Below, one piece after another: positions 2,735 through 60,909 of a DNA stretch of 64,000 nucleotides; positions within the stretch are counted from its first letter, which is position 1, and each line of letters opens with the position of its first letter. The notes below the pieces were generated by a model. That model saw nothing but the letters and a program-made list of their open reading frames with translations, did no database searches and had not been told where the DNA came from. Source of the DNA: Minisyncoccia bacterium (lineage in GTDB: Bacteria; Patescibacteriota; Minisyncoccia; Phycocordibacterales; UBA6065). The DNA is taken from assembly GCA_044233485.1 (NCBI GenBank), contig JBIIJY010000001.1, positions 16,701 to 80,700 on the forward strand. Direction: 5' to 3'. The position numbers were made by a program, and so were the translations under genes.

Positions 2735-2802
2735 GTATATAGTAATACTGAGATTTTTTACTCTATTCTTAAGTCGCTACATAAGTTTTTTAGTGGTGAA
2801 AT

Positions 2803-2849: not shown

Positions 2850-2930
2850 ACACTGCGCGGCTTTTTGAGCTGGTCAACCACAGATATGAAATCAGAGAGA
2901 AAAGCTGAATCTACAAACGATACTGGTATA

Positions 2931-3473: not shown

Positions 3474-3521
3474 GGGTTACATTTTATCACTTTTAGACAT
3501 TTTTGATATAATTTACGGATC
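3474..3521 (-). promoter_or_regulatory. Conserved ~45-bp upstream element (promoter/5' leader module), copy 1, directly upstream of the ICMT gene.
   Basis: cattttatcacttttagacatttttgatataatttacggatcaa is near-identical to 6939-6985, which lies upstream of the CDPS operon. On the coding strand it reads ...TAAATTATATCAAAA.G.CTAAAAGTGATAAAATG, with a TGaTAAAAT-like -10. Confidence 0.5.
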
Positions 3522-3616
3522 AAGTGTGAGCCACAATAATTTGTTCGTCGTCACTCACAAATTTTCCAGCCCCGGACTCGACTGTTTTTCTTGCTAGAAA
3601 AACATGTCTCCGTCTT

Positions 3617-3687
3617 CACAAAATTTAAAAAGAGTGAAGCAGTTCACTCTTTTTAGAAACCAAATTTTGTGACCCTATCGGGATTCG
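3617..3687. repeat. Hairpin (terminator-like) plus an exact 21-nt copy of the tRNA-Glu 3' end (att-like remnant), copy 1.
   Basis: cacaaaatttaaaaagagtgaagcagttcactctttttagaaaccaaattttgtgaccc is followed by tatcgggattcg. 3667-3687 equals 11530-11550 of tRNA-Glu. The hairpin stem differs from the copy at 7138-7196 only by compensatory changes. Confidence 0.8.
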
Positions 3688-3744
3688 GTCACGTATAAAT
3701 TTCTGCTGAAATTTTACGCGACCCCGCCTCGCGCCGTCGCGCTC
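3677..3744. repeat. R1 copy B (3677-3723) fused to the 28-bp GC-rich motif R2 (3717-3744).
   Basis: R2 cgcgaccccgcctcgcgccgtcgcgctc is identical to 59214-59241, and a diverged relative lies at 60450-60476. It is followed by the long hairpin gtcacaatagtaaaaagccacgtgtagtggctttttattattgtgac and another ttgtgaccct at 3790-3799. Confidence 0.75.
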
Positions 3745-4014
3745 GGGCCGTCACAATAGTAAAAAGCCACGTGTAGTGGCTTTTTATTATTGTGACCCTA
3801 CTGTCCCTGGAGTGGAACTCCATAGAACAAGAGATTTTACGCTGGAAAAGTATTGTTTCTGTTTATGGTCATTTGATTATGTCTCCAAGTATGGCTTGAA
3901 AAGCTTACTTTTAAGTCTGTGATAGGAAGTTATTTCTACCAGTCTAGTTATAGGACTGTATTAGGTTAAACGGTTGGTGAAAAAATTAAATCTTCAGGCG
4001 ATACTGCTCCTACA

Positions 4015-4891
4015 TCAGGGCTGGCCTTTTTTTGGTTCACGTACTTTCATTTCCTTCGTGGCGAACATCTCGGCGAGTGTTTGATGGGTACTGGTGTCTC
4101 GCTTATCAACCTCGCCAGTTTTAGGGTTGTACATCTCTTTCTTTAACAAATCACTGATGATGTAAGCGGGTATGGATGAGGTAAGGGACGTTCCGTATGT
4201 GTATGTAAGTGCTATACCAGGAGGCACTCTAATGGCACCTCTTTCTATTAAACCTCCATAAAGTAATACTTCCACTTTACCTGTCACAGAATTAAAAATA
4301 GTAGAGCCACTTGAACCGCTTTGCACCATTGCGTCTATGAGTAAGCCGTGGGGATGTGAACAAGGAAAGGGTTGAACCGCACTCACAATACCTCGTTGCA
4401 ATACGGGGTTAATTTGATGTACCCAACCTGGGGCACGAAGTGTTCTGGTTCCCATTGGAAACCCTGCAATAAAAACCTCGTCGCCTTCGTTGAGATTGAA
4501 TGATGTTTCTAGTTAGAACAGGTAATCCTTTTGCTTTCACATAAATAAATCCAACATCAGGCACGTCTGTTCCGTAATGAGCACCCTCGACTGGTTCTTC
4601 TCTCGTTAATGTTCCAACTCCCTCGACTTCAAGAAATACTGATGCCATTCCTTTGCCTGGAAGGTTTTGTAGATACATTACCAGAATTGGCCATTCGTCG
4701 TCTGGTGCTCCCTTGCGTCTTGGTAGTTGCTTAATCACGTTTACAACGTGGTCATTGGTTACTATCAACCCGTCTTCTCGAACAATAAAGCCAGTCCCGA
4801 TAATATCGGGCATATCAGGATTTTGAGAAATTCTCCCGACTATGGCTACGATTGCTGGCTTTAGTTTTTGGTATTGAGAAGTGAATGACAT
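4015..4891 (-). pseudogene. Trypsin-like (S1, HtrA/DegP-like catalytic domain, no PDZ) serine protease interrupted by a frameshift. The two ORFs are 4409..4891 and 4015..4455.
   Basis: The upstream ORF carries the His motif LIVTNDHVV and ...KGLPVLT. The downstream frame, extended upstream past its ATG, reads SFNLNEGDEVFIAGFPMG and contains the Ser motif SGSSGSTIF. The frames meet near 4500-4515 (ctaactagaaac), where each frame hits a stop in the other. Confidence 0.65.
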
Positions 4892-4895
4892 AGTT

Positions 4896-5762
4896 TTATT
4901 TTGTATCGGGTTCTTTCTTGTGCCATGCCATAATCTTTTTCAGTTGCTCCTTCGTAAGCCCGCTATCGAAAGGCTTGAACAGCCTGTCAGCTTCTTGGAA
5001 ACCCTCTTGGTCTTTGAGGTACAAAAATGAGTTCTTAAGGTTCAGTAAAATTTTGATGAGTAAGTCTTTAACAATATGAAAATTATTTACGCAGTAGTGG
5101 TAACCAGCCTGCTCTTCAAAGTCGAAATCTAGCTTAAATACGTCAACGCTTTCAAGTAGTCCAGCATATCCGCTGTGGGTGTAACTAGACATAATCTTGT
5201 AACACTTCCCAAGCATTTCCTTGATAGGCTGTTCCTCGTTCTCGTAAAATTCTGCAAGCTCGGTATTCAAATGTTCGTGATAAAATTCTCTGGCATCTAC
5301 GTTGCCAATGATTTTGCCTTTGAACCACTTATCAAGAAGGGCCTTATTCTTATCGTCCCAGAACAGCATTGCCAAATCTAATGCTTCCGTACCAGAACGT
5401 GATAGCTCCATCGCTTCAAGGTTCCTACCGTGACGACAAACTAGAAGCGTAGTCTTCAAATTACCGAAAGCCCTCGCAAGGAGAAGATAAGCAGCCGCAG
5501 TCTTTGTTTGTTCGGTAATAGATGTGAGATAAGGGAAAATCCTTCGTATCAATTTCTCTACATCAGGAAGGATTGCCTCAATTTCATCGCATAGCTGGTT
5601 TATTTCCGCCACGCTCCTTGCCTTATCGACTGCGGGAGAATCTGGGTTCGCTTGTGCATATAGAAAGCCCTTCTTTTTATTTATATCTGCAACACGGTTT
5701 TTTACGTATTCTTCAGGAGTTTCGTCTTTTTCAAGCTCTTCAGGGAAAGGAGGTTTTGTCAT
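4896..5762 (-). CDS. Hypothetical protein (288 aa), last gene of the CDPS-SET operon.
   Basis: Its start overlaps the SET stop by 4 nt (ATGA). Acidic N-terminus, probably all-alpha. No motif identified by eye. Confidence 0.6.
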   Translation of the reverse strand: MTKPPFPEELEKDETPEEYVKNRVADINKKKGFLYAQANPDSPAVDKARSVAEINQLCDEIEAILPDVEKLIRRIFPYLTSITEQTKTAAAYLLLARAFGNLKTTLLVCRHGRNLEAMELSRSGTEALDLAMLFWDDKNKALLDKWFKGKIIGNVDAREFYHEHLNTELAEFYENEEQPIKEMLGKCYKIMSSYTHSGYAGLLESVDVFKLDFDFEEQAGYHYCVNNFHIVKDLLIKILLNLKNSFLYLKDQEGFQEADRLFKPFDSGLTKEQLKKIMAWHKKEPDTK

Positions 5763-6232
5763 AGGGATGTAGAAAGATAGTCAGAAATATAACCTTTGTA
5801 TTTTTCCTTTATTTCATTAGGAAGCTCTTTATAACAACCGAGCCTGCCTCTGCATATTGCGGAACCGCACTTACAGATACGCTCTTCTTCGGAAAGCTCG
5901 TCGCCATATTCATATCCAATCATTGCATAGTCTATGGCGAGTTCCTCGTCTTTCTTTATATTCCTCATTGCAACAAATAATGTGCGTTCCTTTACTCCCA
6001 GATTTGGGTCACACGAATGGCAAATAAACTGGCAGAGGTTTCCTTCTGGCATGGTAGGATCAATCTTCAAGCTCTCACTGATTGGTATGGTGTAAGCAGT
6101 TGCGTTTTCAACGATTGAACCAAAGGCTACGAACACAACCTCATCCTTTATAAAATCACGTTGGGCAAATAGGCTTTTCCCGTACTTACCTGTGTCCTTT
6201 GAGTAAACGTTGTCTTCGATTTTGTAAGTCAT
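5759..6232 (-). CDS. SET-domain methyltransferase.
   Basis: FICHSCDPN (NHSCxPN), ELAIDY (ELxFDY), and a post-SET Cys cluster CKCGSAICRGRLG. 157 aa. Confidence 0.85.
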   Translation of the reverse strand: MTYKIEDNVYSKDTGKYGKSLFAQRDFIKDEVVFVAFGSIVENATAYTIPISESLKIDPTMPEGNLCQFICHSCDPNLGVKERTLFVAMRNIKKDEELAIDYAMIGYEYGDELSEEERICKCGSAICRGRLGCYKELPNEIKEKYKGYISDYLSTSL

Positions 6233-6236
6233 AAAT

Positions 6237-6926
6237 TTAGCGAACCACGAGGAGAACTTTAGGTTTTGTGTCCATTACTTTGTCACGAACATCGAGGAAT
6301 AATTCTCCTTTCTGTATGCCTTCTACCAGTTCAGGTAGCTTGCCGTCGTAGGGATAGGCGTATGCATCGAATACCAATCCTTTGATTGGTGTACGTCCCA
6401 GGATTTCAGGAAATTCTGCTATGACATACGAACCCAGCTTTACCTTATCTTCGTAAGAGAAGACCCTATTTTCTTTGCTAGTAAAACTATCCACGAGTTC
6501 GATAATCGCACTTTTGAACTCACTATCTGTGTCGTACTTCTTGTTTAGGAAATCTAGCTTCTCTTGGAAGGCAGGGGTAAAAAGTTCGTCCCACTTTGCG
6601 AAGTGTAATTTCGAGAACTGGTCAGAAGTGAGCTTGGATTTTGCCAGAACTTTAACCCCTTCGAGTATTTCGTCTCCAAGTCGCAGGGCAGTCTCTTTCG
6701 CTTTTTCAGGAGACTTGCGGTTGCGCACTTCGATATTGATTGCGTGAATGCCATCGGCCACGTAAATGACCACGAACTCTTTTGTATGTTCAAGTGACCA
6801 CTCAACCAGACCCACAATGTTTTCAGTAGAAAACCACTTGTTTCCCAAGCTTATTCCAACCCCTATATTGTATTGCTTTGCGTAGAGGTCTTTTTCTGTT
6901 CCGCCTCGAACTTTGTATAACCGCAT
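6237..6926 (-). CDS. tRNA-dependent cyclodipeptide synthase (CDPS, AlbC/YvmC family).
   Basis: 229 aa. IGVGISLGNKWFSTEN matches the AlbC catalytic pocket IGISAGNSYFSQKN (GxS..N..F). VVIYVADGIHAINIE matches VVYVDTHIDEM. SYVIAEFPEIL matches NYVLAEAPLF (YxxxE). An aromatic-rich YAYPYD region matches the Y202 region. The SET gene follows 4 nt downstream. Confidence 0.75.
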   Translation of the reverse strand: MRLYKVRGGTEKDLYAKQYNIGVGISLGNKWFSTENIVGLVEWSLEHTKEFVVIYVADGIHAINIEVRNRKSPEKAKETALRLGDEILEGVKVLAKSKLTSDQFSKLHFAKWDELFTPAFQEKLDFLNKKYDTDSEFKSAIIELVDSFTSKENRVFSYEDKVKLGSYVIAEFPEILGRTPIKGLVFDAYAYPYDGKLPELVEGIQKGELFLDVRDKVMDTKPKVLLVVR

Positions 6927-6938
6927 AAAAGTAAAGTC

Positions 6939-6985
6939 ATTTTATCACTTTTAAGCCATTTTGATATAATTTACCTATCAATCAC
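6939..6985 (-). promoter_or_regulatory. Conserved ~45-bp upstream element, copy 2, directly upstream of the CDPS operon.
   Basis: cattttatcacttttaagccattttgatataatttacctatcaa is near-identical to 3477-3521. Confidence 0.5.
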
Positions 6986-7137
6986 CTCCCTGTGTAGTCA
7001 ATGCAGATCCCTCCCAGAGATTTGCATTTTGTGTCACGAGTTACTAAGTGTTCTCGATCGCTTTGCAATCTGCGAGCACTAAGCACTCGCGACCCCAGCT
7101 CGGCACTTTTTCAGCTGAAAAAGTATGCCTGCGCTTT

Positions 7138-7196
7138 CACAAAATTTAAAAAGACTGGAGCAGTCCAGTCTTTTTGGAAACCAAATTTTGTGACCC
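7138..7196. repeat. Hairpin plus a 9-nt tRNA-Glu 3'-end core (ttgtgaccc), copy 2. It forms the left junction of the GC-rich element.
   Basis: cacaaaatttaaaaagactggagcagtccagtctttttggaaaccaaattttgtgaccc. The stem agactgga/tccagtct corresponds to agagtgaa/ttcactct in copy 1, with base pairing preserved. Base composition changes abruptly after 7196. Confidence 0.8.
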
Positions 7197-7480
7197 ACAA
7201 CAGGACATACCTCGAACTTGGGACCGGATTCTCGACACCTTGGCAGCGTTGAACATGAAGGGCCTTCTGCCTGACCTGGCATCCGTTGTGGAACCAGAGC
7301 ATGCCTCTTTGAACGATGGCCTGCCGGATCACTTTGGCACCTAGCCCAAGCGGTTCGCCCCCCTTGCGGCGGATCAGGAAAGCATCAAAATCCGCCGACG
7401 AGATCGAGTGTCTGTTGGACGTGTGTCAGCAGCTCGGTCTCATCGATCACGGCGGTATCGGCGGCACGGGTAGAGCTGTG

Positions 7481-7717
7481 ATGGAACCGTTTGCCGTATT
7501 CGTTGATCAGTTCGATGCGGGACAGGATCGTCTGGGCTGCCGCCAGCGGATCAGCCGGCTGAGCGTCGCGAATCTTCCCGATGAAATCACCGAGCCCTGT
7601 TGTCCCGAGGACGCCCGACCGAATCCGGAACGGGTTCAGACCAAGGCGGCCCTGGAGGAACTGCTGGGCGACGACGAGGACGGTCTGGCCGCCACCTTCG
7701 AGGATTACCGCCTATGA
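7481..7717 (+). CDS. Hypothetical small acidic protein (start uncertain: 7316 or 7481).
   Basis: High GC at third codon positions in this frame from about 7480. The stop overlaps the next ORF's start (ATGA at 7714-7717). Confidence 0.4.
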   Translation: MEPFAVFVDQFDAGQDRLGCRQRISRLSVANLPDEITEPCCPEDARPNPERVQTKAALEELLGDDEDGLAATFEDYRL

Positions 7718-7986
7718 GCGCCCCGAAGTTCGGCCTGGGCCGGTTGGTGGCCACGCCCAATGCGTTGGCCCATGTCTCCCACGCGGAGATCCTGAAGGCC
7801 GTGTCCCGGCATCTGGCCGGCGATTGGGGCGACTGCGGGGCGGAGGATTGGGCAACCAATGACGCCGCCCTGGTGCAGGGCACCCGCCTGCTGTCGGTGT
7901 ATCACGCCGTGGACCGGACGAAGTTCTGGCTCATCACGGAATGGGACCGGTCGGTGACGACCGTGCTCCTGCCCGAAGACTACTGA
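7714..7986 (+). CDS. Hypothetical protein (~90 aa), translationally coupled to the upstream ORF.
   Basis: MSAPKFGLGRLVATPNALAHVSHAEILKAVSRHLAGDWGDCGAEDWATNDAALVQGTRLLSVYHAVDRTKFWLITEWDRSVTTVLLPEDY has protein-like composition. Confidence 0.5.
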   Translation: MSAPKFGLGRLVATPNALAHVSHAEILKAVSRHLAGDWGDCGAEDWATNDAALVQGTRLLSVYHAVDRTKFWLITEWDRSVTTVLLPEDY

Positions 7987-8124
7987 TTTCACGGCCTCCC
8001 ACTTCTGCGGAGGCCGCTTTTCTTCCCGCCGGCCCTTAAACCAAGGGGCCGTCCACGCTCCCGGCGGAGAGACTCACACCCAGAGCTACCTGCATCAACA
8101 GGCGGACGGCCCGAGAGAGACATC

Positions 8125-8631
8125 ATGGAAGAACCCGAGTTGTTCAAGGTCGCAGTGCGACCTCCCAAGAAGAAGAAGCCACCCCAGGAATACAAGGTGG
8201 TGGCGTTGCGGGACTGTCCGCTGCCGGAGTATCTGCTCAAATGCGAGTCCCCGGAGCACGCGGCCGACTACTGGCGGCGGTGCATCAGCACCCTGCCGAG
8301 TTACGATCCCGACAAGGAATCGTTCGTCGTGCTGTTGCTGACCACCCGCAAGCACGTCAAGGGCCACCAGGTGGTGACCACCGGCATCCTCGACCAGGTG
8401 CTGGTCCATGCCCGCGAAGTGTTCCGGCCCGCGATTGTGGCCGCCGCCCATGCGGTGGTCCTCATGCACAACCACCCCGGGGGAGACCCCTCGCCCAGCG
8501 AGGCGGACCTTCGTGTCACGCGTGACCTGATCCGCGCCGGCCAGCTCCTCAAGATCGAGGTGCTGGACCATGTCATCGTCACCCCGTTCCGGCACTGTTC
8601 ACTGCGGACGTTGGGTTACTTTGCAGGCTGA
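8125..8631 (+). CDS. radC: RadC-like JAB/MPN-domain protein.
   Basis: HNHPGGDPSPSEADLRVTRDLIRAGQLLKIEVLDHVIV matches the RadC/JAB motif HNHPSG..PS..D...T..L......I.LLDH.IV. Confidence 0.85.
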   Translation: MEEPELFKVAVRPPKKKKPPQEYKVVALRDCPLPEYLLKCESPEHAADYWRRCISTLPSYDPDKESFVVLLLTTRKHVKGHQVVTTGILDQVLVHAREVFRPAIVAAAHAVVLMHNHPGGDPSPSEADLRVTRDLIRAGQLLKIEVLDHVIVTPFRHCSLRTLGYFAG

Positions 8632-8635
8632 CCAA

Positions 8636-8672
8636 GCCCGCTCCGATGGAGCGGGCTTTTGTTGGCGATGAA
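8636..8672 (+). terminator. Rho-independent terminator after radC.
   Basis: aagcccgctcc-gatg-gagcgggctt followed by ttgttgg. Confidence 0.6.
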
Positions 8673-8831
8673 TTACGCTAAGAAGCTCCCGAGACTGCGA
8701 AACTGGTTCTAGGCGAACCTCGTGGCTTCGTTTCGGGCTACTGGCAAACCGCATGTCCTGTAAGGCGTGAAAGTTGAGAACCAGTCGCCCAGCCGACGCT
8801 GTTTCGGCTGGGCGGCACGCCTCGCGTTGCA

Positions 8832-9125
8832 TCATCCGCCTTTTCGGCGGACTTCTTTGACGACGACGGTCGCAATTTCCATAACAACGGCCCCGTGTTG
8901 TGCCAAAAATCGCACGGCAGGCCGAGCCCATATCGGCGCCAAGACGACCAGCGATCCCGTGACCACGTCGTGCCAACCGCGGTGCCAGCCGAACATCGCA
9001 AGCATGCCCAGGCCGGCGAAGCTGATCGGTATCCAATTGACGCTTTTCGAGATATGTGGTGCAGATTTCTTGCGCCCTTGCCGGCGGCGACGATTTGCGT
9101 TATCGTTATCTTGTTTACGCATAAC
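8832..9125 (-). CDS. Possible small membrane protein (~98 aa). Ambiguous against overlapping plus-strand ORFs.
   Basis: MRKQDNDNANRRRRQGRKKS... followed by a hydrophobic stretch WIPISFAGLGMLAMFGWHRGWHDVVTGSLVVLAPIW. The plus-strand ORFs 8767..9138 and 8895..9146 have poorer composition, but a plus-strand terminator at 9174 argues that something on the plus strand ends there. Confidence 0.3.
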   Translation of the reverse strand, partial: VMRKQDNDNANRRRRQGRKKSAPHISKSVNWIPISFAGLGMLAMFGWHRGWHDVVTGSLVVLAPIWARPAVRFLAQHGAVVMEIATVVVKEVRRKGG

Positions 9126-9173
9126 AGTGTTAGTGTGATTGTTTAATTGTGTAAACACCCGGGTTTTTCCGGG

Positions 9174-9211
9174 TAGGCCGCCTGCTGTAACAGGCGGCCT
9201 TTTTTGTTTGG
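9174..9211 (+). terminator. Rho-independent terminator (second of two tandem hairpins).
   Basis: aggccgcctg-ctgtaa-caggcggcct followed by tttttt. It is preceded by the hairpin acccgggtttttccgggt. Confidence 0.55.
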
Positions 9212-9300
9212 ACCGCACTTGCAGCCCACAGCCGACACTAGCAAGCGACTGCGCGAAGATGTTTGGGGTTTGGGTGGCGCATGGTGATTGGAAATGGTCG

Positions 9301-9624
9301 TTAAGCGGCCTGGCCAGCAATGGTCGCCAGAACCTGACGACGCTGGGTTTGCTGGTGGCCGGTCTGGGCAGCGAGTGCCTTGGCACGGGCCGCCACATCT
9401 CGGGCTACTTCGCCATAGAGACCGCTGAAGAGTTCGCTCGCCGAGCGCTGGTAGATGGCCTCGTAGGCGAGGGCCGCCCTAAGTCCGGGTTCACGGGCGA
9501 AGCGTTCATGCCGCGAGACCTTGGCCCCGCTCTGGGTGCCCAGCAGAAAGGCCACGTCCTCCTGGGAGAGTCCCAGGCGTTTGCGGTTCGAAAGCAGGTA
9601 GTTGGGTAGCAGGGTTGAAGACAT
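9301..9624 (-). CDS. XRE-family helix-turn-helix transcriptional regulator.
   Basis: LGLSQEDVAFLLGTQSGAKVSRHERF is a classic HTH_3 segment. It is transcribed divergently from the small ORF and the recombinase. Confidence 0.75.
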   Translation of the reverse strand: MSSTLLPNYLLSNRKRLGLSQEDVAFLLGTQSGAKVSRHERFAREPGLRAALAYEAIYQRSASELFSGLYGEVARDVAARAKALAAQTGHQQTQRRQVLATIAGQAA

Positions 9625-9872
9625 GGGGGTGGAACTCGCGGGGAGTCCGAGCCTTCACCCTACCGGATCGGTGAAACTATCGTAGGCGGGAACCTTTGCC
9701 GCTGACGGCAAGTGCGAAGGCCAACACCGGACAAATCAGTCCGGTGGAAGGATTAGGATTATACCATGTTATTACCCGTCCGTCAAAGATGCCCCCGAAA
9801 GGCGAAGGTGTCGTCACCGGCAGACATCCCCGTCTTCGGCCGCCAAGATTGAGGCGGTAGAGTGGGTCGCAC

Positions 9873-10106
9873 ATGAAGCCAAACCCCACTCCCACCCTGC
9901 GTGAGCTGTATCCCCACTTCACCGAGCACGAGCTGGCCGAGGCAGAGGATAACGTCGAACGCTATCTGGCGCTCATGCTGCGGATATTTGATCGCCTGGA
10001 GGCCGAGGCTGCCCCGTCGCCCGATCCATTGTCCCCTGACCCGGATGTGATACAATGCTCATTGCCGGATTCAGCCCCGCTTCCCCGGCCTCTCCCACAC
10101 CCATGA
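9873..10106 (+). CDS. Small protein (77 aa) translationally coupled to the serine recombinase. A possible directionality or accessory factor (speculative).
   Basis: Its stop TGA (10104-10106) overlaps the recombinase ATG (10103-10105). Confidence 0.45.
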   Translation: MKPNPTPTLRELYPHFTEHELAEAEDNVERYLALMLRIFDRLEAEAAPSPDPLSPDPDVIQCSLPDSAPLPRPLPHP

Positions 10107-11602
10107 ACGGATACATCGGCTACATCCGTGTCTCCACGGTGAAACAAGGAACCCAAGGAGTCTCGCTGCAGGAACAGCGCGAGGCGATTTTGCGTTACGC
10201 CGAACGCAATCGACTGCCGATTGGCATCTGGCTGGAGGAGATGGAAACCGCGGCCAAGCAGGGTCGTCCCGTGTTCAACCGCGCACTCAAACTGCTTCGT
10301 AGCCGAGGCGCCCGGGGAATCATCCTGCATAAGCTGGACCGGGGAGCGCGCAACCTCCGGGATTGGGCGGCTATCGGCGAGCTTTCTGATCAAGGCGTTG
10401 AGATTCACTTCGTTTCCGAAGGGCTGGATCTCCAGTCCAGGGGTGGCCGACTTTCGGCCGACATTCAGGCGGTCGTGGCCGCCGATTACATCCGCAATTT
10501 GCGTGAGGAGACCCGCAAGGGATTTTACGGACGTCTGAAGCAGGGCCTCTACCCGCTGCAGGCTCCGCTCGGCTATGTCGATCAGGGCCGGGGAAAGGCC
10601 AAGACGATTGACCCCGTGATGGGACCGATCGTCCGGCAGGCGTTCGAGCTTTATGCCAGCACCCACTTCAATCTGGAATCCTTGGGCACGGAATTGCATA
10701 GGCGGGGACTCCGCAACCGCCGCGGGGGACGGGTGACCCGCAATGGACTCTCCACGCTGCTCAACAATCCCTTCTATTTCGGCCTCATCCACCTTCAAAA
10801 GACGGGTGAGACCTTCGCGGGCGTGCATGAACCGCTCATTGGCAAGGTCCTCTTTGACCGCGTGCAGGGAGTTCTCACCGGCAAAACCAACACCCGCAGT
10901 CAGCGGCATCGGTTCCAGTATCGCCGGCTGTTTGCCTGTCAGTCCTGCCGTCATTCACTCGTGGGCGAGCGCCAGAAGGGGCACGTCTATTACCGTTGCC
11001 ACGGCAAATCCTGCCCGCCGTCTTCCGTCCGCGAGGAGGCCATCGGGATGCAGGTGGAAAACCTGCTCCGGAAAATCCGTTTCAATGAACAGGAACAGGC
11101 CTACTTCAAAGCCCGACTCCGCCTGATGAAAACGACGTGGGCCAATCGGCAGGAACAGGAGGCCAGACTTTTGAACATCAAGCTGGGCCAGCTCAGGGAT
11201 CGCCTCAACCGATTAACCGACGCCTACCTGGACCAGGCCCTCGATAAAACCATGTTTGAAGCCCGGAAACAGAGCCTGTTGCTGGAGCAGAGGGAGACCG
11301 AGGCGCAGCTAGCCAACCTGATCCGTCACCACGGCACTTCGCCGGATCGGCTTGAGAAATTCCTCGAACTGGCCGGCGACGCCTGGTTGAGCCACCAGAA
11401 GGCATCGCCCGAGGAACAGCGTGAACTGGTCAGCATCTTCACCTCGAACCGGCAGGTGCAGGGAAAAAAGGTCGAATTGGAGCCGTCGCTTCCGTTTAGG
11501 GAAATAGCGGAACGGTCGACTTCGGATGGTTGTGACCCTATCGGGATTCGAACCCGAGTTACAGGCTTGAAAAGCCCGTGTCCTGACCAGACTAGACGAT
11601 AG
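10103..11602 (+). CDS. Large serine recombinase (resolvase/invertase catalytic domain, recombinase domain, zinc ribbon, coiled coil).
   Basis: MNGYIGYIRVSTVKQ carries the catalytic Ser. Zn ribbon: CQSCRHSLVGERQKGHVYYRCHGKSC. Coiled-coil C-terminus. The ORF nominally reads through tRNA-Glu (11533-11606); the true stop and the role of the last ~25 codons are uncertain. Confidence 0.88.
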   Translation: MNGYIGYIRVSTVKQGTQGVSLQEQREAILRYAERNRLPIGIWLEEMETAAKQGRPVFNRALKLLRSRGARGIILHKLDRGARNLRDWAAIGELSDQGVEIHFVSEGLDLQSRGGRLSADIQAVVAADYIRNLREETRKGFYGRLKQGLYPLQAPLGYVDQGRGKAKTIDPVMGPIVRQAFELYASTHFNLESLGTELHRRGLRNRRGGRVTRNGLSTLLNNPFYFGLIHLQKTGETFAGVHEPLIGKVLFDRVQGVLTGKTNTRSQRHRFQYRRLFACQSCRHSLVGERQKGHVYYRCHGKSCPPSSVREEAIGMQVENLLRKIRFNEQEQAYFKARLRLMKTTWANRQEQEARLLNIKLGQLRDRLNRLTDAYLDQALDKTMFEARKQSLLLEQRETEAQLANLIRHHGTSPDRLEKFLELAGDAWLSHQKASPEEQRELVSIFTSNRQVQGKKVELEPSLPFREIAERSTSDGCDPIGIRTRVTGLKSPCPDQTRR

Positions 11603-11606
11603 GGCC
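11533..11606 (-). tRNA. tRNA-Glu (anticodon TTC).
   Basis: GGCCCTATCGTCTAGTCTGGTCAGGACACGGGCTTTTCAAGCCTGTAACTCGGGTTCGAATCCCGATAGGGTCA. It closely resembles E. coli tRNA-Glu. Anticodon loop TTTTCAA. No CCA is encoded. Confidence 0.85.
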
Positions 11607-11700: not shown

Positions 11701-11787
11701 GGAAGCGTGGCTGAGTGGTTGAAAGCACCGCTCTCGAAAAGCGGCATAGGGGTAACCTTATCGGGAGTTCAAATCTCCCCGCTTCCG
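11701..11787 (+). tRNA. tRNA-Ser (anticodon CGA), type II with a long variable arm.
   Basis: GGAAGCGTGGCTGAGTGGTTGAAAGCACCGCTCTCGAAAAGCGG...GGGAGTTCAAATCTCCCCGCTTCCG. The acceptor, D, anticodon (CTCGAAA), variable and T arms all fold. Confidence 0.85.
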
Positions 11788-12045
11788 CAGGATAGGAAGT
11801 GTTGGGGACACTTCCGTGGAGATTTGAAAGGACTTTCCTGAAAGACGAGAAGTTTGTGGCTTCGAGTATTTCGGAAAGTCACCTGCCGATGTAATCGGAA
11901 AATCTCCCCGCTTCCGCAGGATAGGAAGTGTTGGGAACACTTCCGTGGAGATTTGAAAGGACTTTCCTGAAAGACGAGAAGTTTACTGCTTCGAGTATTT
12001 CGGAAAGTCACCTGCCGATGTAGTCGGAAAATCTCCCCGCTTCCG
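11771..12045. repeat. Tandem 129-bp direct repeats (2 full units plus 17 nt), each beginning with the tRNA-Ser 3' end.
   Basis: aaatctccccgcttccg occurs at 11771, 11900 and 12029. The units are near-identical and contain the internal palindrome ggaagtgttggggacacttcc. Confidence 0.85.
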
Positions 12046-12056
12046 CAGGAGATTAT

Positions 12057-15000
12057 TTACTCTAAAAATAGCCCCCAACTCTCGAGCAAGGCCTGTGTTT
12101 GGAATTGCAAGAATTCAAGGAGTGCCCGCTCAGTATTTTGACCGAACGTAGAAGTTTCTCTTCCTGGAGAGCCCGGACCAGTCTCGACGATCTCGAACCC
12201 GCTACGGTTAAGGAAGATTTGAAGATCTCGTACTCCGCTTGTGGCTGTGTTCAAGTTACCTACAGCCTCTTCACTTGCTGGGGTACTCACAGGCAATTGA
12301 ACACTCTGTACTACCGGAGCTTGAGGTGAAGCAGGAACCACAGGTATAGGCAGGGTCGTGGCGATCCGTGCCAGTCGACGTCCTGCATTTCCAGTACTTG
12401 AAGCCGGTTGAGGCGCTTGAGTGGCCACTTCTTCTACAGGCTGCGGACGCAACTGGATAGTCAGAACACGTAGTTCAACCCCACGCACACCGTCATCGGC
12501 TGGAAAAAATAATTTGTTTCCGAGAAGTTTTGCCTCGGACATCTCAGGACTTGAATCCGAACTCCCCGGATAGATATCGTCAACTAGGACAGTACCTTCA
12601 GTAGTACCGTCGCTTTTCCAGAGCTCGATACCATTCACGCCATCGGTCGCATTGAAATAGATTGTACCATCGATATCGACCAGACCACTCGGTTCACTAC
12701 TTCCTGTTTGATGTATATCCTTCACCATCACCGTTCCTTCTTCGGTGCCGTCGGATTTCCAGAGTTCGAATCCATTCACACCATCGATTGCCCTAAAATA
12801 CAAGTTATTATTGTAATTTAAAAAATATTGCGGCGAGGATGCATCTGAGTTTGCTGGAGCGATATTTTTCACCATGACCGTTCCCTCAGTGGTGCCGTCG
12901 GATTTCCAGAGTTCTAGATCATTCGCGAAACCATCAAACCCTGAAAAAAATAACGTGCCGTTGACAGTCAGCGCAAAATGCTCGAAACCAACATTCCCTG
13001 GCGGGTAGGTATCCTTCACAAGCACGGTGCCCAGAGTAGTACCGTCAGTCTTCCAGAGTTGAGTGAGCGAATTAAAGAAGTAGATGACATTCTCACCGAC
13101 TGTAAAGTTACTTAATTCTGCTGAATCAATATCTGTGACCACTATCGTCCCGTCCGTAGTGCCATCAGTTTTCCAGAGTTGTCTCCCATGCGTACCGTCA
13201 TTTGCAGTGAAATAAAGTGCATTTTTCCAAATGAAAAAACTAGTGGGGTCTGAGTAACCACCGTCTGGATTTATATCTTTTACCAGTACCGTTCCACCTT
13301 CAGTGCCATCAGTTTTCCAGAGTTCAGTTCCATATACATTGTCAGGGTCCGTAGCGCCAAAATAAACCACTCCATTGTAGGAGGCAATCTCTGTTGGAGT
13401 AGGGGCATCGATAATTTTTTGCGTTCCTTCACTTGTCCCATCGCTTTTCCAGAGTTCTCCATTACCATCAACATCAAAAGCAAAGAAATATAGTTGATTT
13501 CCGTTAACTGTGAGTACAGAGGGATCTGAACCAGAAAGCCCCGGGACAATATCTTTAACCATCACCGTCCCCTCGGTGGTGCCGTCACTTTTCCAGAGCT
13601 CGATACCATGAACCCCGTCATCGGCAATAAAATAGAAATTTTCTTTAAAGAGAATACTGCCCCCTGGATATGAACTGACAGTATTTGTATTCAAGTCTTC
13701 AATTAGCACCGTCCCCCCTTGCGTACCGTCACTTTTCCAGAGTTCATAGCCACGAACCCCATCATCGGCAGTAAAATACAACGCACCACCGCTCACAAGA
13801 AAACCTTGAGGGTTTGAATATCCAGGCTCAGCCCTATCTTCAGTATTTATATCTTTCACCATTACTGTTCCCACATCTGTCCCATCACTTTTCCAAAGTT
13901 CAAACCCATTAACACCATCGTCTGCTGAAAAATATAATGTACCAGCCGCACCAACCATGCGTCCGCCTGAAAGCCCATCGGTTTCGTCTCCACTGATATC
14001 CTTCACCATCACTGTTCCTTCTTCGGTACCATCACTTTTCCAGAGTTCAAACCCATTCACTCCGTCATTCCCTCCAAAGTAAAGCGTGCCGCCAATATCA
14101 ACTAGTGCAGATGGTAAATTCGTCTCTCCTTCAGTCGTATCAACATCCTTCACCATTACCGTTCCTTCTTCGGTACCATCACTTTTCCAGAGTTCATAAT
14201 CCTCATCAGTTGAAGCCGCCACAAAAAACAGGGTGCCACCTGAAACTACCAAACTATTGACCCCAGAACTACTATTTCCGGGATTTATATCTTTCACAAC
14301 CACCGTACCTAGTGTAGTACCGTCGGTCTTCATGAGCTCATACCCAGCGGCATTAGTACTCGCGCCGAAATATAAAACACCGTCGAATTCTGCAGCTGCG
14401 AAACCTTCAGATATCCCATCTCCACCTGTATAAAGGTCTTTTACGAGCACGGTGCCCAGAGTAGTACCGTCGGTCTTGTACAGCTCGTATCCAGTCCCGT
14501 CATTATAGCCTCTAAAATACAAATTTCCGCCAGCGTTAATGAATTGAGTAGTTACCGAGCCTGCTGGTCCCGGGCGAATATCCTTCACCATCACCGTTCC
14601 TTCTTCCGTGCCGTCACTTTTCCAGAGTTCAGATCCCGTAACGTCATTGTCCGATGCCGCGGAAAAGAATATCTCTCCATTTAGAATACCTACCTCACGA
14701 CCATCAAGCTGGAGAACCCCTTCTCCGGCTCCAGGATTGATATCCTTCACTATCACCGTCCCCTCCTCGGTACCGTCACTTTTCCAGAGTTCAGTACCGA
14801 GATTTGTCAAAGCAGAAAAAAAGAACACGTCCCCGACGACGTACAAATCACCGATCTGCGCATTCGCAACTCCAGCAGCAAACTGTTTTACAAGCATCGT
14901 ACCCTCAGAAGTTCCATCACTCTTCCAAATTTGATTATTATTCCGGACAAAATAAGTTGATCCGAGAAACTCGATTAATTCAGAAGAGATGCCGGCTGAG

Positions 15001-15146
15001 TCCGTATCGGTATTTATATCTTTCAAGAGCACTGAAGAGGCGCGCGCAGACTGCGCGGTTACCAGACTCGCAAAGATAACTAGCAAGAGTGCTGTCTTGA
15101 CGACGAAATTCACTTTTCTAGTATAGCAGAAAGTACCACTCGTCAA
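12057..15146 (-). CDS. Large secreted cell-surface protein: about 17 ELWxxDGT-type repeats (likely beta-propeller) plus a C-terminal peptidoglycan-binding (PG_binding_1-like) domain.
   Basis: Signal peptide. Repeated ELWKSDGTEEGTVMVKDI... units. The C-terminus, RDLQIFLNRSGF...GPGSPGRETSTFGQNTERALLEFLQFQ, resembles PG-binding domain 1. Confidence 0.85.
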   Translation of the reverse strand: MTSGTFCYTRKVNFVVKTALLLVIFASLVTAQSARASSVLLKDINTDTDSAGISSELIEFLGSTYFVRNNNQIWKSDGTSEGTMLVKQFAAGVANAQIGDLYVVGDVFFFSALTNLGTELWKSDGTEEGTVIVKDINPGAGEGVLQLDGREVGILNGEIFFSAASDNDVTGSELWKSDGTEEGTVMVKDIRPGPAGSVTTQFINAGGNLYFRGYNDGTGYELYKTDGTTLGTVLVKDLYTGGDGISEGFAAAEFDGVLYFGASTNAAGYELMKTDGTTLGTVVVKDINPGNSSSGVNSLVVSGGTLFFVAASTDEDYELWKSDGTEEGTVMVKDVDTTEGETNLPSALVDIGGTLYFGGNDGVNGFELWKSDGTEEGTVMVKDISGDETDGLSGGRMVGAAGTLYFSADDGVNGFELWKSDGTDVGTVMVKDINTEDRAEPGYSNPQGFLVSGGALYFTADDGVRGYELWKSDGTQGGTVLIEDLNTNTVSSYPGGSILFKENFYFIADDGVHGIELWKSDGTTEGTVMVKDIVPGLSGSDPSVLTVNGNQLYFFAFDVDGNGELWKSDGTSEGTQKIIDAPTPTEIASYNGVVYFGATDPDNVYGTELWKTDGTEGGTVLVKDINPDGGYSDPTSFFIWKNALYFTANDGTHGRQLWKTDGTTDGTIVVTDIDSAELSNFTVGENVIYFFNSLTQLWKTDGTTLGTVLVKDTYPPGNVGFEHFALTVNGTLFFSGFDGFANDLELWKSDGTTEGTVMVKNIAPANSDASSPQYFLNYNNNLYFRAIDGVNGFELWKSDGTEEGTVMVKDIHQTGSSEPSGLVDIDGTIYFNATDGVNGIELWKSDGTTEGTVLVDDIYPGSSDSSPEMSEAKLLGNKLFFPADDGVRGVELRVLTIQLRPQPVEEVATQAPQPASSTGNAGRRLARIATTLPIPVVPASPQAPVVQSVQLPVSTPASEEAVGNLNTATSGVRDLQIFLNRSGFEIVETGPGSPGRETSTFGQNTERALLEFLQFQTQALLESWGLFLE

Positions 15147-16695: not shown

Positions 16696-16732
16696 ATCGC
16701 GGGGCGGCCAAAGGTCGCCCCGCTTTTTTTAT
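16696..16732. terminator. Bidirectional rho-independent terminator.
   Basis: gcggggcggcc-aaag-gtcgccccgc followed by ttttttt. Confidence 0.6.
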
Positions 16733-23646: not shown

Positions 23647-23828
23647 AGTATTGTTTGAAACCAAAGTACTTATATATCTGGAAAGATTTCGGTTTTCAGA
23701 TATCCCACAATTTCCCACCTAGATGTAATTATATTCCACTTGCTCCCACTTGAATAGTTTCTACCTGTGGATAGAACGTAAAACGCGGGGCGACCTCTGG
23801 TCGCCCCGCGTTTTATCCCCCGCCACAA

Positions 23829-58559: not shown

Positions 58560-59084
58560 TTAGTAGACACCTCTAGCGTGATCCTCAACAAGTATTTTCA
58601 CGAAGCGTTTATTTTGGCATTCATACGTCTCACGCTCGATCTTAGGACTGGATGAGCAATAGAAAGCAAAACGCCCGAGCTTCTTACCTGTTACACTCAA
58701 ACTCAAGAAACCGAGTCCGGAGTGGACGGTGTAACCGGAAGCCTCACCTTCATCAAGAACTTTTTCTTTTAGCCCATCCGCTTCAACGAGGATGAACTTG
58801 TTCTTACCAAGACTAGGTGCGCCACCTAGCTCGTCCTGCGTGTAGTGATACACGAAGAACTTTGTGCTGGGCGGTATTTCGGAAGCACTTTTCCGAAGTT
58901 CGATCGGTGGTGTCACTTCACAACCAAGTATTTTTACGATTTTTGCAATTGGTAGACGGTTTGTCTCGCGATTGCACATGTTAATGAGCGGTAGTCTATA
59001 CATACTTTCTTTACTCCTTCTGTATGTACTTGCATAGTTGCAAGCAACTGTCGCTGCTTTTGAAGCAGGTACAGCATAAAACAA
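58560..59084 (-). CDS. Hypothetical protein.
   Basis: 174-aa ORF, followed on the minus strand by a terminator at 58496-58522. No motif. Confidence 0.4.
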   Translation of the reverse strand: MFYAVPASKAATVACNYASTYRRSKESMYRLPLINMCNRETNRLPIAKIVKILGCEVTPPIELRKSASEIPPSTKFFVYHYTQDELGGAPSLGKNKFILVEADGLKEKVLDEGEASGYTVHSGLGFLSLSVTGKKLGRFAFYCSSSPKIERETYECQNKRFVKILVEDHARGVY

Positions 59085-59213
59085 AGAGATTATCTTTACT
59101 TTATGCTGTACCCATTTTCGACTATCTCAATTTATTATATCACTTGTAATCTATTTGTCAACTATTGTGGAATGTACAGGCCTCGGTCACAGGTCTCGCA
59201 CTGCTGTGCTCGC

Positions 59214-59262
59214 CCGCGACCCCGCCTCGCGCCGTCGCGCTCCGGCTTTCGAGTCCTGTAAT
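59214..59262. repeat. R2 GC-rich 28-bp motif (exact copy) followed by an inverted 13-nt tRNA-Ala T-arm fragment.
   Basis: cgcgaccccgcctcgcgccgtcgcgctc (59214-59241) equals 3717-3744. ttcgagtcctgta at 59249-59261 equals the tRNA-Ala T-arm in the opposite orientation. Confidence 0.7.
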
Positions 59263-59313
59263 ACCCAGCCAGCAAGAAAAAACACCCGCGCATGCGGATG
59301 TTTTTTCTTGCTG

Positions 59314-59386
59314 TGGACCCTACAGGACTCGAACCTGCCACCCCCGCTTTGCAAAAGCGGTGCTCTACCAGATGAGCTAAGGGCCC
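59314..59386 (-). tRNA. tRNA-Ala (anticodon TGC).
   Basis: GGGCCCTTAGCTCATCTGGTAGAGCACCGCTTTTGCAAAGCGGGGGTGGCAGGTTCGAGTCCTGTAGGGTCCA. It is followed by a long hairpin terminator (gcaagaaaaaacatccgc / gcgggtgttttttcttgc). Confidence 0.85.
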
Positions 59387-59471
59387 AAAAACCTACGATG
59401 TAAATAGTACTATTTTTGGTAAAAAGTGCAAGGTGGGTTGACGCGCAAGCTACAGGTACTACAATAAATCT

Positions 59472-59837
59472 ATGCATCGTGTACACACGCTCATCGCTAC
59501 TGTACTCCTTCTCTGCGTTACAATCACAGCTGGCTTTGGTTTTATCTCTCTCTTCCATTCAGGCCATCACGCAGACACCTCCCTCTCGTGCCCGTTCTCA
59601 AACCACGTCGAACGTACCTGTAGCAACACAATACTCGGACACTTTGAAGCTTGGTCACATACGTTCCTTCTTATATTTGCCCTCACCCTCGTCTTCATAC
59701 CATTACGACGTCTTGTACTAGCACGGACCCTCTCTATTTCATATAGCCCACCACAAAGACCAATCCAAGCAGATACCGTCCCTTCTCCACTACAGTGGGC
59801 ATTCTCCCGAGGCATACTCAATACCAAGGCCTACTAG
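59472..59837 (+). CDS. Small membrane protein with His/Cys-rich loops (possible metal binding).
   Basis: TM helices plus HSGHHADTSLSCPFSNH. Adjacent to the DUF305 protein. Confidence 0.4.
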   Translation: MHRVHTLIATVLLLCVTITAGFGFISLFHSGHHADTSLSCPFSNHVERTCSNTILGHFEAWSHTFLLIFALTLVFIPLRRLVLARTLSISYSPPQRPIQADTVPSPLQWAFSRGILNTKAY

Positions 59838-59887
59838 TCACTCTACTGGGTTTTCTCTTATCTTGATCAAATAAACGTTTAATTTTA

Positions 59888-60301
59888 TTGACTACTAACA
59901 TAACATTCATGGACAAAAAAAATATTCTTATTGCAGTCGGAGGAGTCGTTGCAGGCATAGTCATTGGCGCACTTCTTGTACGGAGTGGTGCTTGCCCGAT
60001 GATGAACAAACTCAGCGGACACGGAGGTAAAAACTGCACGATGATGGGGCAAGGTCACGGAAACATGTCTCACATGATGAGTGACATGGTAGAGGGACTT
60101 GAAGGAAAGCGTGGTGATGCTTTTGATGCCGCTTTCCTGGATGAGATGGTTATTCATCATGAAGGAGCAGTAGCGATGGCTGAAGAAGTGCTCGAACACT
60201 CAAAGCGACCAGAGCTCTTGAAACTCGCTGATGAAATTATCTCGGCACAGACAAAAGAAATCGAGATGATGAAAGCGTGGAAGGCACGGTGGTTTAAGTA
60301 A
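59888..60301 (+). CDS. DUF305-family protein with a Met/His-rich region (putative copper homeostasis).
   Basis: MMGQGHGNMSHMMSDM, a Met/His copper-binding-like stretch. The DUF305 core reads DAAFLDEMVIHHEGAVAMAEEVL...AQTKEIEMMKAW. Confidence 0.65.
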   Translation: MTTNITFMDKKNILIAVGGVVAGIVIGALLVRSGACPMMNKLSGHGGKNCTMMGQGHGNMSHMMSDMVEGLEGKRGDAFDAAFLDEMVIHHEGAVAMAEEVLEHSKRPELLKLADEIISAQTKEIEMMKAWKARWFK

Positions 60302-60357
60302 CTACAATCCGTCGCTTCCAACAAAAACCACCCATACGGGTGGTTTTTAATTGTCTA

Positions 60358-60423
60358 GATCCCCCACGCAGAGCAAAGCAGTTTGCTCTGCTCCACCTCA
60401 CGATGTGTCGGCGGGTGGGATCG
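60358..60423. repeat. 66-bp direct repeat, copy 1: hairpin plus the last 18 nt of tRNA-Met, then GTCAC.
   Basis: Identical to 60502-60567, which is the intact tRNA-Met 3' end plus its downstream hairpin gcagagcaaagcagtttgctctgc. The two copies diverge immediately after gggatcg (gtcac in copy 1, aacca in copy 2). Confidence 0.8.
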
Positions 60424-60549
60424 GTCACAACTCTTTTACTTCGTAAAAGGTCGCTACCCCGCCTCGTCTGTCTCGCATAGCTCGACATGACTCTGGCCTT
60501 CGATCCCCCACGCAGAGCAAAGCAGTTTGCTCTGCTCCACCTCACGATG

Positions 60550-60623
60550 TGTCGGCGGGTGGGATCGAACCACCGACCTTGGGCTTATGAGTCCCACGCT
60601 CTAGCCAACTGAGCTACGCCGAC
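60550..60623 (-). tRNA. tRNA-Met (anticodon CAT); initiator vs elongator vs Ile2 not resolved.
   Basis: GTCGGCGTAGCTCAGTTGGCTAGAGCGTGGGACTCATAAGCCCAAGGTCGGTGGTTCGATCCCACCCGCCGACA. Anticodon loop CTCATAA. GGG/CCC in the anticodon stem. Confidence 0.8.
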
Positions 60624-60657
60624 ATCTACTTTCTGTATCTATTCTGCCAACTATACC

Positions 60658-60909
60658 CTATTTCTGTCGTTTTTCAATAGATCCGGAAGGTAGTTTCTGT
60701 GGAGATTTATCCACAAATGTCTGAGTGAAGGCACACCACGGACACGTGAGGCGAGTTCGTGGAGTCATGTGTATGTCGGCGATCGTCCACCACTTTGAAC
60801 ACGAGACACACAAAAAGTGTACCAAGATTTCTCTTGAGTACACCCCTGTAGTTTTTCGTGTGGATTGTTTACCGGGCTTCATCAAGCGTTTCGAGCGGAA
60901 TGCGTTCAT
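60658..60909 (-). CDS. Possible small zinc-ribbon protein (CxxC...CxxC).
   Basis: CVSCSKWW...CPWC. Overlaps the next ORF's start by about 40 nt. Weak. Confidence 0.3.
   Translation of the reverse strand: MNAFRSKRLMKPGKQSTRKTTGVYSREILVHFLCVSCSKWWTIADIHMTPRTRLTCPWCAFTQTFVDKSPQKLPSGSIEKRQK

Follow-up and report, generated by a model that had tools for sequence, protein, structure and literature searches.

Structured non-coding elements beside tRNA 3′ ends in Patescibacteria and Elusimicrobia

The module at the GTCAC junctions

What kind of sequence duplicates the end of a tRNA gene and leaves the same short flank beside the truncated copy at two different tRNAs? The question is raised by a 64,000-nucleotide stretch of a Minisyncoccia bacterium genome (contig JBIIJY010000001.1, positions 16,701–80,700; hereafter the window), in which partial copies of tRNA-Met and tRNA-Glu run from the T-loop into GTCAC. 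A sequence-only reading had described these junctions exactly as they stand and had proposed one family of tRNA-targeting elements sharing a conserved attP arm. The single family, the conserved element-side arm and the common T-loop breakpoint are borne out here, whereas attP and the integrase that it implies are not; none of the elements examined encodes a recombinase or has one next to it. We favor, with a probability of about 0.6, the reading that the junctions mark a widespread family of small integrative elements, non-coding and non-autonomous, whose targets are the 3′ portions of tRNA genes and in some cases of tmRNA genes.

Intact tRNA-Met(CAT) occupies 60549–60623 on the minus strand (ARAGORN; Rfam tRNA, 65.8 bits) and overlaps a 66-nt direct repeat whose copies, 60358–60423 and 60502–60567, are 100% identical and lie 144 bp apart from start to start. 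The repeat length had been reported correctly; the gap between the copies is 78 bp (60424–60501) rather than 76 bp. Each copy comprises the last 19 nt of tRNA-Met (GTGTCGGCGGGTGGGATCG) and 47 bp of downstream flank. After GGGATCG, copy 1 passes into GTCAC, whereas copy 2, which belongs to the intact gene, continues into AACCA. The tRNA-Glu remnants (TATCGGGATTCG plus GTCACG, at 2802–2819 and 3676–3693) likewise read GGGATTCG then GTCACG, where the intact gene reads GGGATTCG then AACCC. An assembly artefact is ruled out by the agreement of two independent assemblies at the tRNA-Met locus. Over 2101 bp a JGI contig (sample 3300042914) shows 100% identity, and in a contig of another sample, 3300059473, the genes that flank the tRNA-Met intergenic region on either side have unchanged coordinates.

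GTCAC by itself is an ordinary pentamer and would be weak evidence; the window contains 54 copies, which places it at rank 597 of 1024. The refuting condition named in the earlier reading, a random frequency of GTCAC, thus holds for the pentamer but not for the sequence to which it belongs. In an alignment of four window copies, common blocks reach well past GTCAC, and the case for one family is much stronger than could first be seen: the shared flank is a structured module of 65–100 nt rather than 5 bp. On the GTCAC strand the module consists of GTCAC, a hairpin of ~25 nt whose sequence varies while its pairing is kept, a GC box (GCGACCCCGCCTCG, or GCTACCCCGCCTCG at tRNA-Met), a second hairpin, CTCCGGCTTT, and an inverted copy of the T-loop and T-stem. 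The string TCGGTCAC occurs five times in the window, four of them at the GTCAC junctions, and GGGATYCGGTCAC has a chance expectation of 0.07 in the window. The 11-mer ACCCCGCCTCG, located 27–28 nt beyond GTCAC, occurs three times, always within modules (0 of 100 shuffles reach three), the third occurrence being downstream of tRNA-Ala.

Read in the tRNA direction, 37 copies of the same length form a gapless seed alignment, and the fold is a three-way junction on the tRNA-sense strand. Helix P1 pairs the arm with the tRNA segment CGAnUCC..., and AAA links it to P3a (GCC/GGC), which is separated from the variable hairpin P3b by an internal loop, GGA/GA. A GG(G) linker leads to P2a (GUCGC/GUGAC), which has an invariant G·U pair, and beyond it P2 has three covarying pairs, then a bulged A, another seven covarying pairs and finally an AGCA loop. 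Read on the antisense strand, the invariant GUGAC side of P2a is GTCAC.

Standard pairs fill 93.7% of the paired cells in the seed, compared with 77.8% after shuffling, and 92.5% in 128 covariance-model hits; sliding the 3′ partners by 1–3 columns gives 33–44% and 33–42%, respectively. Cells changed on both sides number 172 in the seed (shuffled, 52) and 767 in the 128 hits, and covariation is seen in 16 of 30 pairs in the seed and 27 of 30 in the hits. The G·U pair of P2a is present in 37/37 seed sequences and in 119/122 of the larger set, where the adjacent pair is GU in 62, GC in 35 and AU in 13. On the complementary strand these G·U pairs would become A·C mismatches, which identifies the tRNA-sense strand as the one that folds. 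Invariant positions number 32, the bulged A (A75) is invariant in the seed alignment, and the core also contains tandem G-A motifs.

A complete unit, in the tRNA direction, starts with a tRNA copy (position 56 to the 3′ end), followed by a spacer, T1, that often resembles an intrinsic terminator, an arm of 8–10 nt complementary to tRNA positions 56–65, the core, and a displaced tRNA 3′ fragment. The core runs AAAGCC, GGA, variable hairpin P3, GA, GGC, GG and the long hairpin P2 with its invariant G·U pair and bulged A; it ends in GUGAC, and the displaced fragment of the original tRNA follows directly.

The tRNA-Met locus has all these parts on the minus strand. T1 (60512–60548) holds the hairpin GCAGAGCAAACTGCTTTGCTCTGC, a type with an AAGCAG loop that recurs in members L019, L037, L046, L048 and L056. 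The arm, the 5′ strand of P1 (60501–60511; sense GTGGGGGATCG), complements T-loop and T-stem positions 56–65 of tRNA-Met. The core (60424–60500), which makes up the spacer earlier given as 76 bp, lies within a covariance-model match at 60404–60519 (55.7 bits, E = 4e-15) and reads on the plus strand GTCAC (the 3′ strand of P2a), the P2 hairpin, the GC box, the P3 hairpin and CTCTGGCCTT. Repeat copy 1 contains the displaced tRNA-Met 3′ fragment (60405–60423), and its remainder, 60358–60404, is a second copy of T1 plus 10 nt of the arm. The Met copy folds alone into the family shape; as sense RNA its folding energy is −48 kcal/mol (z = −3.97, with 0 of 200 shuffles as good), while z is −1.72 for antisense RNA and −1.41 for the sense strand as DNA.

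The 66-bp duplication is long for the family, although 50–102 bp are found in L006, L044 and L081. Repeat-to-repeat units mostly measure 106–220 bp, so that the 144-bp unit is typical; since it also retains the family fold, the tRNA-Met copy counts as an ordinary member that diverges slightly and whose only unusual trait is the length of its duplication. Between the "scar or miniature element" offered earlier, the latter is favored. We also considered a pseudo-tRNA, or a degenerate tandem tRNA 5′ half, in the 78-bp spacer and rejected it: the TGTCG match to the acceptor stem sits inside hairpin P3, and neither ARAGORN nor Rfam makes a call there.

Covariance model R1, built from other genomes, was run on the window and matched five copies, all on the minus strand and downstream of tRNA-Ala, tRNA-Met and tRNA-Glu (three at Glu). 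The canonical member is at tRNA-Ala (59166–59268; 97.3 bits, E = 5e-28), where the tRNA (59313–59386) is followed by a terminator-like T1 (59263–59313), the arm (59250–59262), the core (59186–59249), and then, reached through GTCAC, the decayed remnant TGGAATGTACAGGCCTCG (59168–59185). Leftward of intact tRNA-Glu(TTC) (11532–11606, minus strand), which anchors an array of elements and islands reaching at least to 2794, copy b (3668–3765; 75.7 bits, E = 2e-21) has a remnant, GTGACCCTATCGGGATTCG, that ends at 3687 and is followed by GTCACG, a core at 3688–3750, a degenerate arm, and a terminator with a 9-nt tRNA-Glu end fragment at 3751–3801. Copy a is degenerate (2794–2906; 34.1 bits, E = 2e-8); its 12-nt remnant TATCGGGATTCG (2802–2813) precedes GTCACG, and its P2 hairpin matches that of copy b at all but one position. 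A divergent fifth member lies at 7026–7145 (27.5 bits, E = 2e-6), with a closing helix that uses sequence like the tRNA-Glu trailer (ATTTTGT/ACAAAAT), and a weak sixth match lies at 3514–3630. The proposal that one family acts at several tRNAs is thereby extended within the window to Met, Ala and Glu, the last with three copies and a weak fourth.

Distribution and position relative to tRNA genes

The module is not confined to this genome, for which D-Ala-D-Ala ligase homologues point to Paceibacterota. A scan of a genome collection (one genome per species) with the pattern TCGGTCAC-N(20-30)-GCKACCCCGCCTCG gave at least 119 loci, which among the matches listed are nearly all from Patescibacteria or Elusimicrobia. 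About 43 of these listed matches are labeled Saccharibacteria, about 45 are other Patescibacteria (among them Paceibacterota, Kaiserbacteria, Berkelbacteria, WWE3 and Gracilibacteria) and 12 are Elusimicrobia, and a few bear other labels; four are obvious chance hits in GC-rich genomes. A covariance model on 100 loci retrieved 128 copies, again nearly all from Patescibacteria and Elusimicrobia, and the core is conserved across these phyla. Patescibacteria account for much of bacterial diversity with very small genomes, so a conserved non-coding element this abundant among them calls for an explanation.

Position and orientation relative to tRNAs are fixed. Among 127 tabulated copies, 95 start a median of 46 nt after the 3′ end of a same-strand tRNA, three lie after a tRNA on the opposite strand, and for 29 no tRNA is present within 450 nt. 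Fifteen tRNA isotypes are represented, and the copies without a tRNA include contig ends, arrays, apparent tmRNA 3′ ends (L048, L053) and topA (L077). With tmRNA and an occasional protein gene added to the targets, and at least ~115 other genomes carrying the module, the family suspected from two loci extends far beyond the window. At L048:4365–4471 and L053:1155–1415 the copies follow tmRNA-like 3′ ends (...GGGTTCGATTCCC..CATCTCCACA), and at L077:4389–4692 a tandem pair after topA duplicates sequence at the 3′ end of that gene.

Where a remnant is recognizable, its identity with the intact tRNA starts at position 56 and extends, mostly over 19–20 nt, to the tRNA 3′ end. The direct repeat is present in 56 cases in other genomes, with duplications of 17–25 nt and up to 102 nt. 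Tandem units occur in L007, L025, L032 and L060, and two 191-bp units of L007 are identical over 222 nt. In L060 (2630–3381) the tandem units measure 330 bp, and a module abuts a truncated, inverted tRNA-Glu; the palindrome found there, CGATTCCCTCGGGAATCG, suggests recombination between T-loop sites in opposite orientation.

Rfam has no family for the module. Over the window, all 4227 Rfam families reach threshold only at the four tRNAs, and a scan of 59000–60700 at E ≤ 10 returns nothing but noise where the modules at tRNA-Ala and tRNA-Met lie. Ribozyme cores (hammerhead, hairpin, HDV, twister and others) were rejected, their motifs being absent by eye and their families without an Rfam match. 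A search of full-text literature, motif sequence included and subscription-only papers outside its reach, returned no description. As a kind, the tRNA-targeting integrative element is already known; in the sources searched, what is new is a miniature form that encodes no protein, a three-way junction shared across phyla and an arm complementary to the target.

Integration and the competing explanations

Two comparisons bear on which side of a unit is native. Counting as terminator-like a hairpin followed by a T-run within 70 nt, such signals were found in 41% of T1 spacers after occupied tRNAs, 23% of the flanks of unoccupied tRNAs, 21% of the flanks after remnants and 8% of random 70-mers. 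By these rates a remnant and its flank look like an ordinary native tRNA end, whereas the tRNA end beside T1, terminator included, seems to have arrived with the element. Among pairs in which the remnant has diverged from the intact tRNA, pairing with the arm is better for the intact tRNA in 14 cases and for the remnant in four, with nine ties. Complementarity of the arm is therefore maintained toward the functional tRNA segment that belongs to the element, and the remnant is left to decay.

The cores themselves appear to change partners. Their similarity groups neither by genome nor by tRNA type (means 0.64–0.66), so that neither bursts, with cores clustering by genome, nor homing, with cores clustering by tRNA type, is seen. 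Cores up to 95% identical occur at different tRNA species in different genomes, from which it follows that tRNA partners are exchanged on a short time scale. In a relative of the present bacterium (DUF305 protein 92% identical, DNA ~78%), the orthologous tRNA-Ala has a different mini-element of the same architecture (L123:1262–1445), comprising a remnant, GTGGATACAGGAATCTCG, an AT-rich core, and an arm, CAGGACTCG, followed by AAGACC. Its remnant starts at the same T-loop position and it forms a three-way junction; its spacer is different, the element includes an inverted tRNA-Ala 3′ part interrupted by a hairpin, and the covariance model gives no match to it. It may represent a third family.

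These observations suggest a route of integration like that of tRNA-targeting islands. An excised copy, probably circular, would recombine with a matching tRNA gene inside the segment from position 56 to the end, installing the element's tRNA end and terminator and pushing the old end outward. The recombinase would act in trans, and its machinery would recognize the folded core together with the arm–tRNA helix; the core could act as single-stranded DNA, like integron attC and the attP of CTX phage, or as RNA. At tRNA-Met, the segment 60549–60567, from T-loop position 56 to the tRNA 3′ end, would then have been supplied by the element. A regenerated target plus a displaced fragment is the pattern of tRNA-targeting islands (Islander, PMC4383910), and the comparison used for islands gives 19 identities in 19 positions between the regenerated end and the displaced fragment (60405–60423) at this locus.

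Several points weigh against such mobility. No excised form or empty site was found in viral, phage and plasmid collections or in close-strain searches, and the latter gave no locus comparable to tRNA-Met: the contig of a 97%-identical relative stops before it, a 27-mer scan of metagenome contigs was without match, and for the relative whose DUF305 protein is 92% identical, the contigs break off exactly where the repeat lies. The elements examined neither contain nor adjoin a recombinase gene. T1 sequences differ between elements with nearly identical cores, a variation that would also fit a native tRNA and terminator into which only arm, core and copied fragment are inserted, a model that we regard as less likely in view of the terminator statistics. 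A further difficulty is that both the arm and the tRNA copy would have to be re-derived on a move to a new tRNA species. The G·U-rich covariation and the much stronger fold z as RNA than as DNA favor an RNA role, for which DNA recombination has no need and which this pattern and the RNA-specific stability make a serious alternative.

The 106–220-bp units carry no open reading frame (ORF), a Pfam scan of the cargo and neighboring ORFs near tRNA-Glu gave no integrase, and none is present among the best 25 of the 61 Pfam families matched by window ORFs. The ORFs beside orphan copies look like housekeeping genes by eye (TopA, FtsH, GroEL, ClpB, DprA, MurF), and in the same by-eye reading none recurs across unrelated loci. 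Two scans of 2.9 million viral contigs, and BLAST against 50,697 phage records and 72,556 plasmid records, returned no copy, and a phage or plasmid origin was rejected on this basis. The large serine recombinase beside tRNA-Glu was likewise rejected as the mobilizer: a homologue is present at one of ~120 loci (L094), and in both that locus and the window the recombinase island is separate, inserted in the acceptor-stem strand with a duplication of its own (GTGACCC in the window, GCGG in L094).

Were the elements mobile, they would amount to gene-cassette traffic at tRNA genes without linked integrases, of which the tRNA-Glu locus, with cyclodipeptide synthase, SET-domain protein and methyltransferase cargo between modules, would be an example. 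In practice, the repeats may interrupt assemblies of short reads at tRNA genes, and software that searches for islands can be misled by them. Of three contigs, that of L002 terminates within tRNA-Met, and those of L123 and L124 stop ~40 nt beyond the DUF305 stop codon, at its terminator; these ends, independent and from short reads, are consistent with the repeat breaking assemblies near tRNA-Met.

A more specific version may be put forward tentatively, at well under even odds: the units would be a new class of mobile nucleic acid that brings its own target recognition. In it the three-way junction, whether RNA or single-stranded DNA, would serve as a scaffold that is catalytic or recruits a recombinase, and the variable arm as a guide pairing with the T-loop and T-stem of the target tRNA. 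One core could then hop among all tRNA species and stack non-coding or cargo cassettes at tRNA genes in integron fashion without a linked integrase, and, if the arm is a guide, the unit might be a compact reprogrammable device for site-specific insertion. Folded single-stranded recombination sites are known from integron attC and from the attP(+) hairpin of CTX phage, the latter used by XerCD. The mini-elements resemble them in covariation-maintained structure, bulged bases, a single folding strand and an arm–tRNA helix that could mimic a duplex target as these sites do, and their small non-coding or cargo cassettes stack at one anchor site as attC cassettes do. The attC-type features present are the imperfect one-strand hairpin, covariation in 27/30 pairs and the extrahelical A. 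The R″/R′ boxes (RYYYAAC/GTTRRRY) are absent from the module consensus, and, unlike attC, the mini-elements conserve core sequence highly in addition to structure, use a tRNA gene rather than an intI–attI platform as anchor and duplicate 19–20 nt.

A somewhat more doubtful proposal casts the module as a structured RNA of use to the host, either the product of a non-coding RNA gene or acting in cis, that lies downstream of tRNAs and has the same direction of transcription as they do. In that case the tRNA fragment would be functional, for example as a T-arm-mimic helix, and the repeats by-products of the gene's origin; in a variant, a self-cleaving ribozyme would process the transcript at the GUGAC/C junction. 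The strong covariation, the 32 invariant positions, the invariant G·U pair, the bulged A, the tandem G-A motifs, the conservation across phyla and the tRNA-sense fold (z = −3.97 for RNA, against −1.41 for DNA and −1.72 for antisense RNA) all speak for it, and an RNA fold would make the module a candidate new ribozyme or protein-binding RNA. They are countered by the terminator-like hairpins that stand between tRNA and module in 41% of cases with no conserved promoter upstream, by remnants that decay uncompensated while the arm tracks the intact tRNA, and by the tandem arrays, the copies after tmRNA and topA and the different element at the relative's site. No Rfam family matches.

It is unlikely that the modules are ordinary scars, that is, double-stranded attP arms of tyrosine-integrase islands or prophages, the mini-elements being deletion remnants akin to the cis-mobilizable elements (CIMEs) derived from integrative and conjugative elements (ICEs). 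A displaced fragment from the T-loop plus a regenerated tRNA is the classical integrase signature (Islander, PMC4383910), and cargo-carrying versions exist, at 3802–7025 in the window and in L016 (2.4 kb). Most copies are nevertheless mini-elements of similar size, 106–220 bp; none of the copies examined adjoins an integrase; and the viral contigs, phage records and plasmid records searched gave no match. Compensatory changes that preserve hairpins are unexpected for protein sites on duplex DNA, and covarying hairpins unlike an ordinary double-stranded integrase arm are also what makes the earlier attP assignment doubtful.

Genomic islands and prophages integrated in tRNA and tmRNA genes are nevertheless a close parallel. 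Williams in 2002 reportedly described integration at such genes by tyrosine integrases, including a class with a T-loop crossover. The islands of these integrases and the mini-elements share the 3′ target, the element-borne regeneration of the gene, the displaced fragment that begins at the T-loop and lies at the far end, and tandem arrays. The mini-elements differ in being 110–220 bp rather than kilobases long, in having no integrase gene, and in an arm that is part of a covarying, phylum-spanning three-way junction and complementary to the tRNA segment. The CIMEs of Streptococcus ICEs are att-flanked, lack recombination genes, are presumed to be mobilized in trans and are kilobase deletion derivatives of identifiable ICEs. 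Att-like direct repeats, the lack of recombination genes and the presumed mobilization in trans are common to both; for the mini-elements, in contrast, no parent element was found, and the conserved fold is their main content.

Far less probable is a miniature insert of the IS200/IS605, PATE or REPIN kind placed 3′ of the T-loop GGTT, with a HUH transposase acting in trans on hairpin ends. Imperfect hairpins with a G·T mismatch and a bulged base near the element end, a fixed insertion point right after the T-loop TT, and folding of the gene-sense strand fit this idea. The IS200/IS605 family duplicates no target, whereas here the insertion point is fixed but a duplication of 17–25 nt, in some cases as long as 102 nt, is made; a copy brought by the element restores the tRNA, and no TnpA or TnpB was seen nearby. 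Miniature inverted-repeat transposable elements (MITEs), REPINs and PATEs are similarly short, structured sequences without coding capacity that occur in many copies and rely on an enzyme acting in trans. Unlike these, the mini-elements are strictly specific for tRNA 3′ ends, restore the gene, make a long target-defined duplication and have no terminal inverted repeats of their own.

A chance match to a pentamer as common as GTCAC, or an artefact of assembly, can be dismissed in view of model E-values of 4e-15 to 5e-28, the carriage of the module by at least ~115 other genomes and the agreement of the two assemblies.

Neighboring elements and cargo in the window

Every tRNA gene in the window has a mini-element downstream. 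At tRNA-Ser(CGA), the region 11771–12050 contains the tRNA and then two 129-bp tandem units, 96% identical, both of which close with the final 22 nt of the tRNA. In the unit AAAGG comes after the arm GTGGAGATTTG, and the minimum-energy fold is a terminal helix with the tRNA fragment closing a three-way junction of one long and one short hairpin. The main-family model gives no match to these units, which look like a second family of the same architecture.

Downstream of tRNA-Glu (2794–7145), low-GC (35–44%) cargo genes lie between successive modules, and the copies at 3668–3765 and 7026–7145 bracket a 3.3-kb low-GC cargo region. Pfam identifies a PEMT-like methyltransferase at 2931–3473, a SET-domain protein at 5759–6232 and a cyclodipeptide synthase at 6237–6926; matches below cutoff are a weak trypsin-like ORF (4409–4891) and a weak DUF5677-like ORF (4896–5762), and a nucleotidyltransferase is also among the matches of the cargo and neighboring ORFs. 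The layout, without an integrase, resembles a cassette array.

Beyond the fifth member, a 4.3-kb island (7197–11531) has ~60% GC, compared with ~47% for the genome around it. Its insertion lies in the tRNA-Glu acceptor-stem strand, and it duplicates the 7 nt GTGACCC (7190–7196 and 11533–11539). It encodes a large serine recombinase (10055–11602) with Resolvase, Recombinase and zinc-ribbon domains (PF00239, PF07508, PF13408), whose 3′ end overlaps the tRNA-Glu 3′ end on the opposite strand. This is a large serine recombinase island separate from the GTCAC family, since the model has no match inside it. The same arrangement is found in L094, there at tRNA-Ser, and no other locus has a homologue.

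Two further features of the window were noted. An ORF of 1029 aa on the minus strand (12057–15146) contains ~16 tandem repeats of ~48 aa, with a period of 141–162 nt and a conserved TTTTCCAGAG (plus strand). Two 31-nt GC-rich hairpins, at 16698–16728 and 23780–23810, are inverted relative to each other, 7 kb apart and 90% complementary (CGCGGGGCGGCCAAAGGTCGCCCCGCTTTTT), and look like related terminators.

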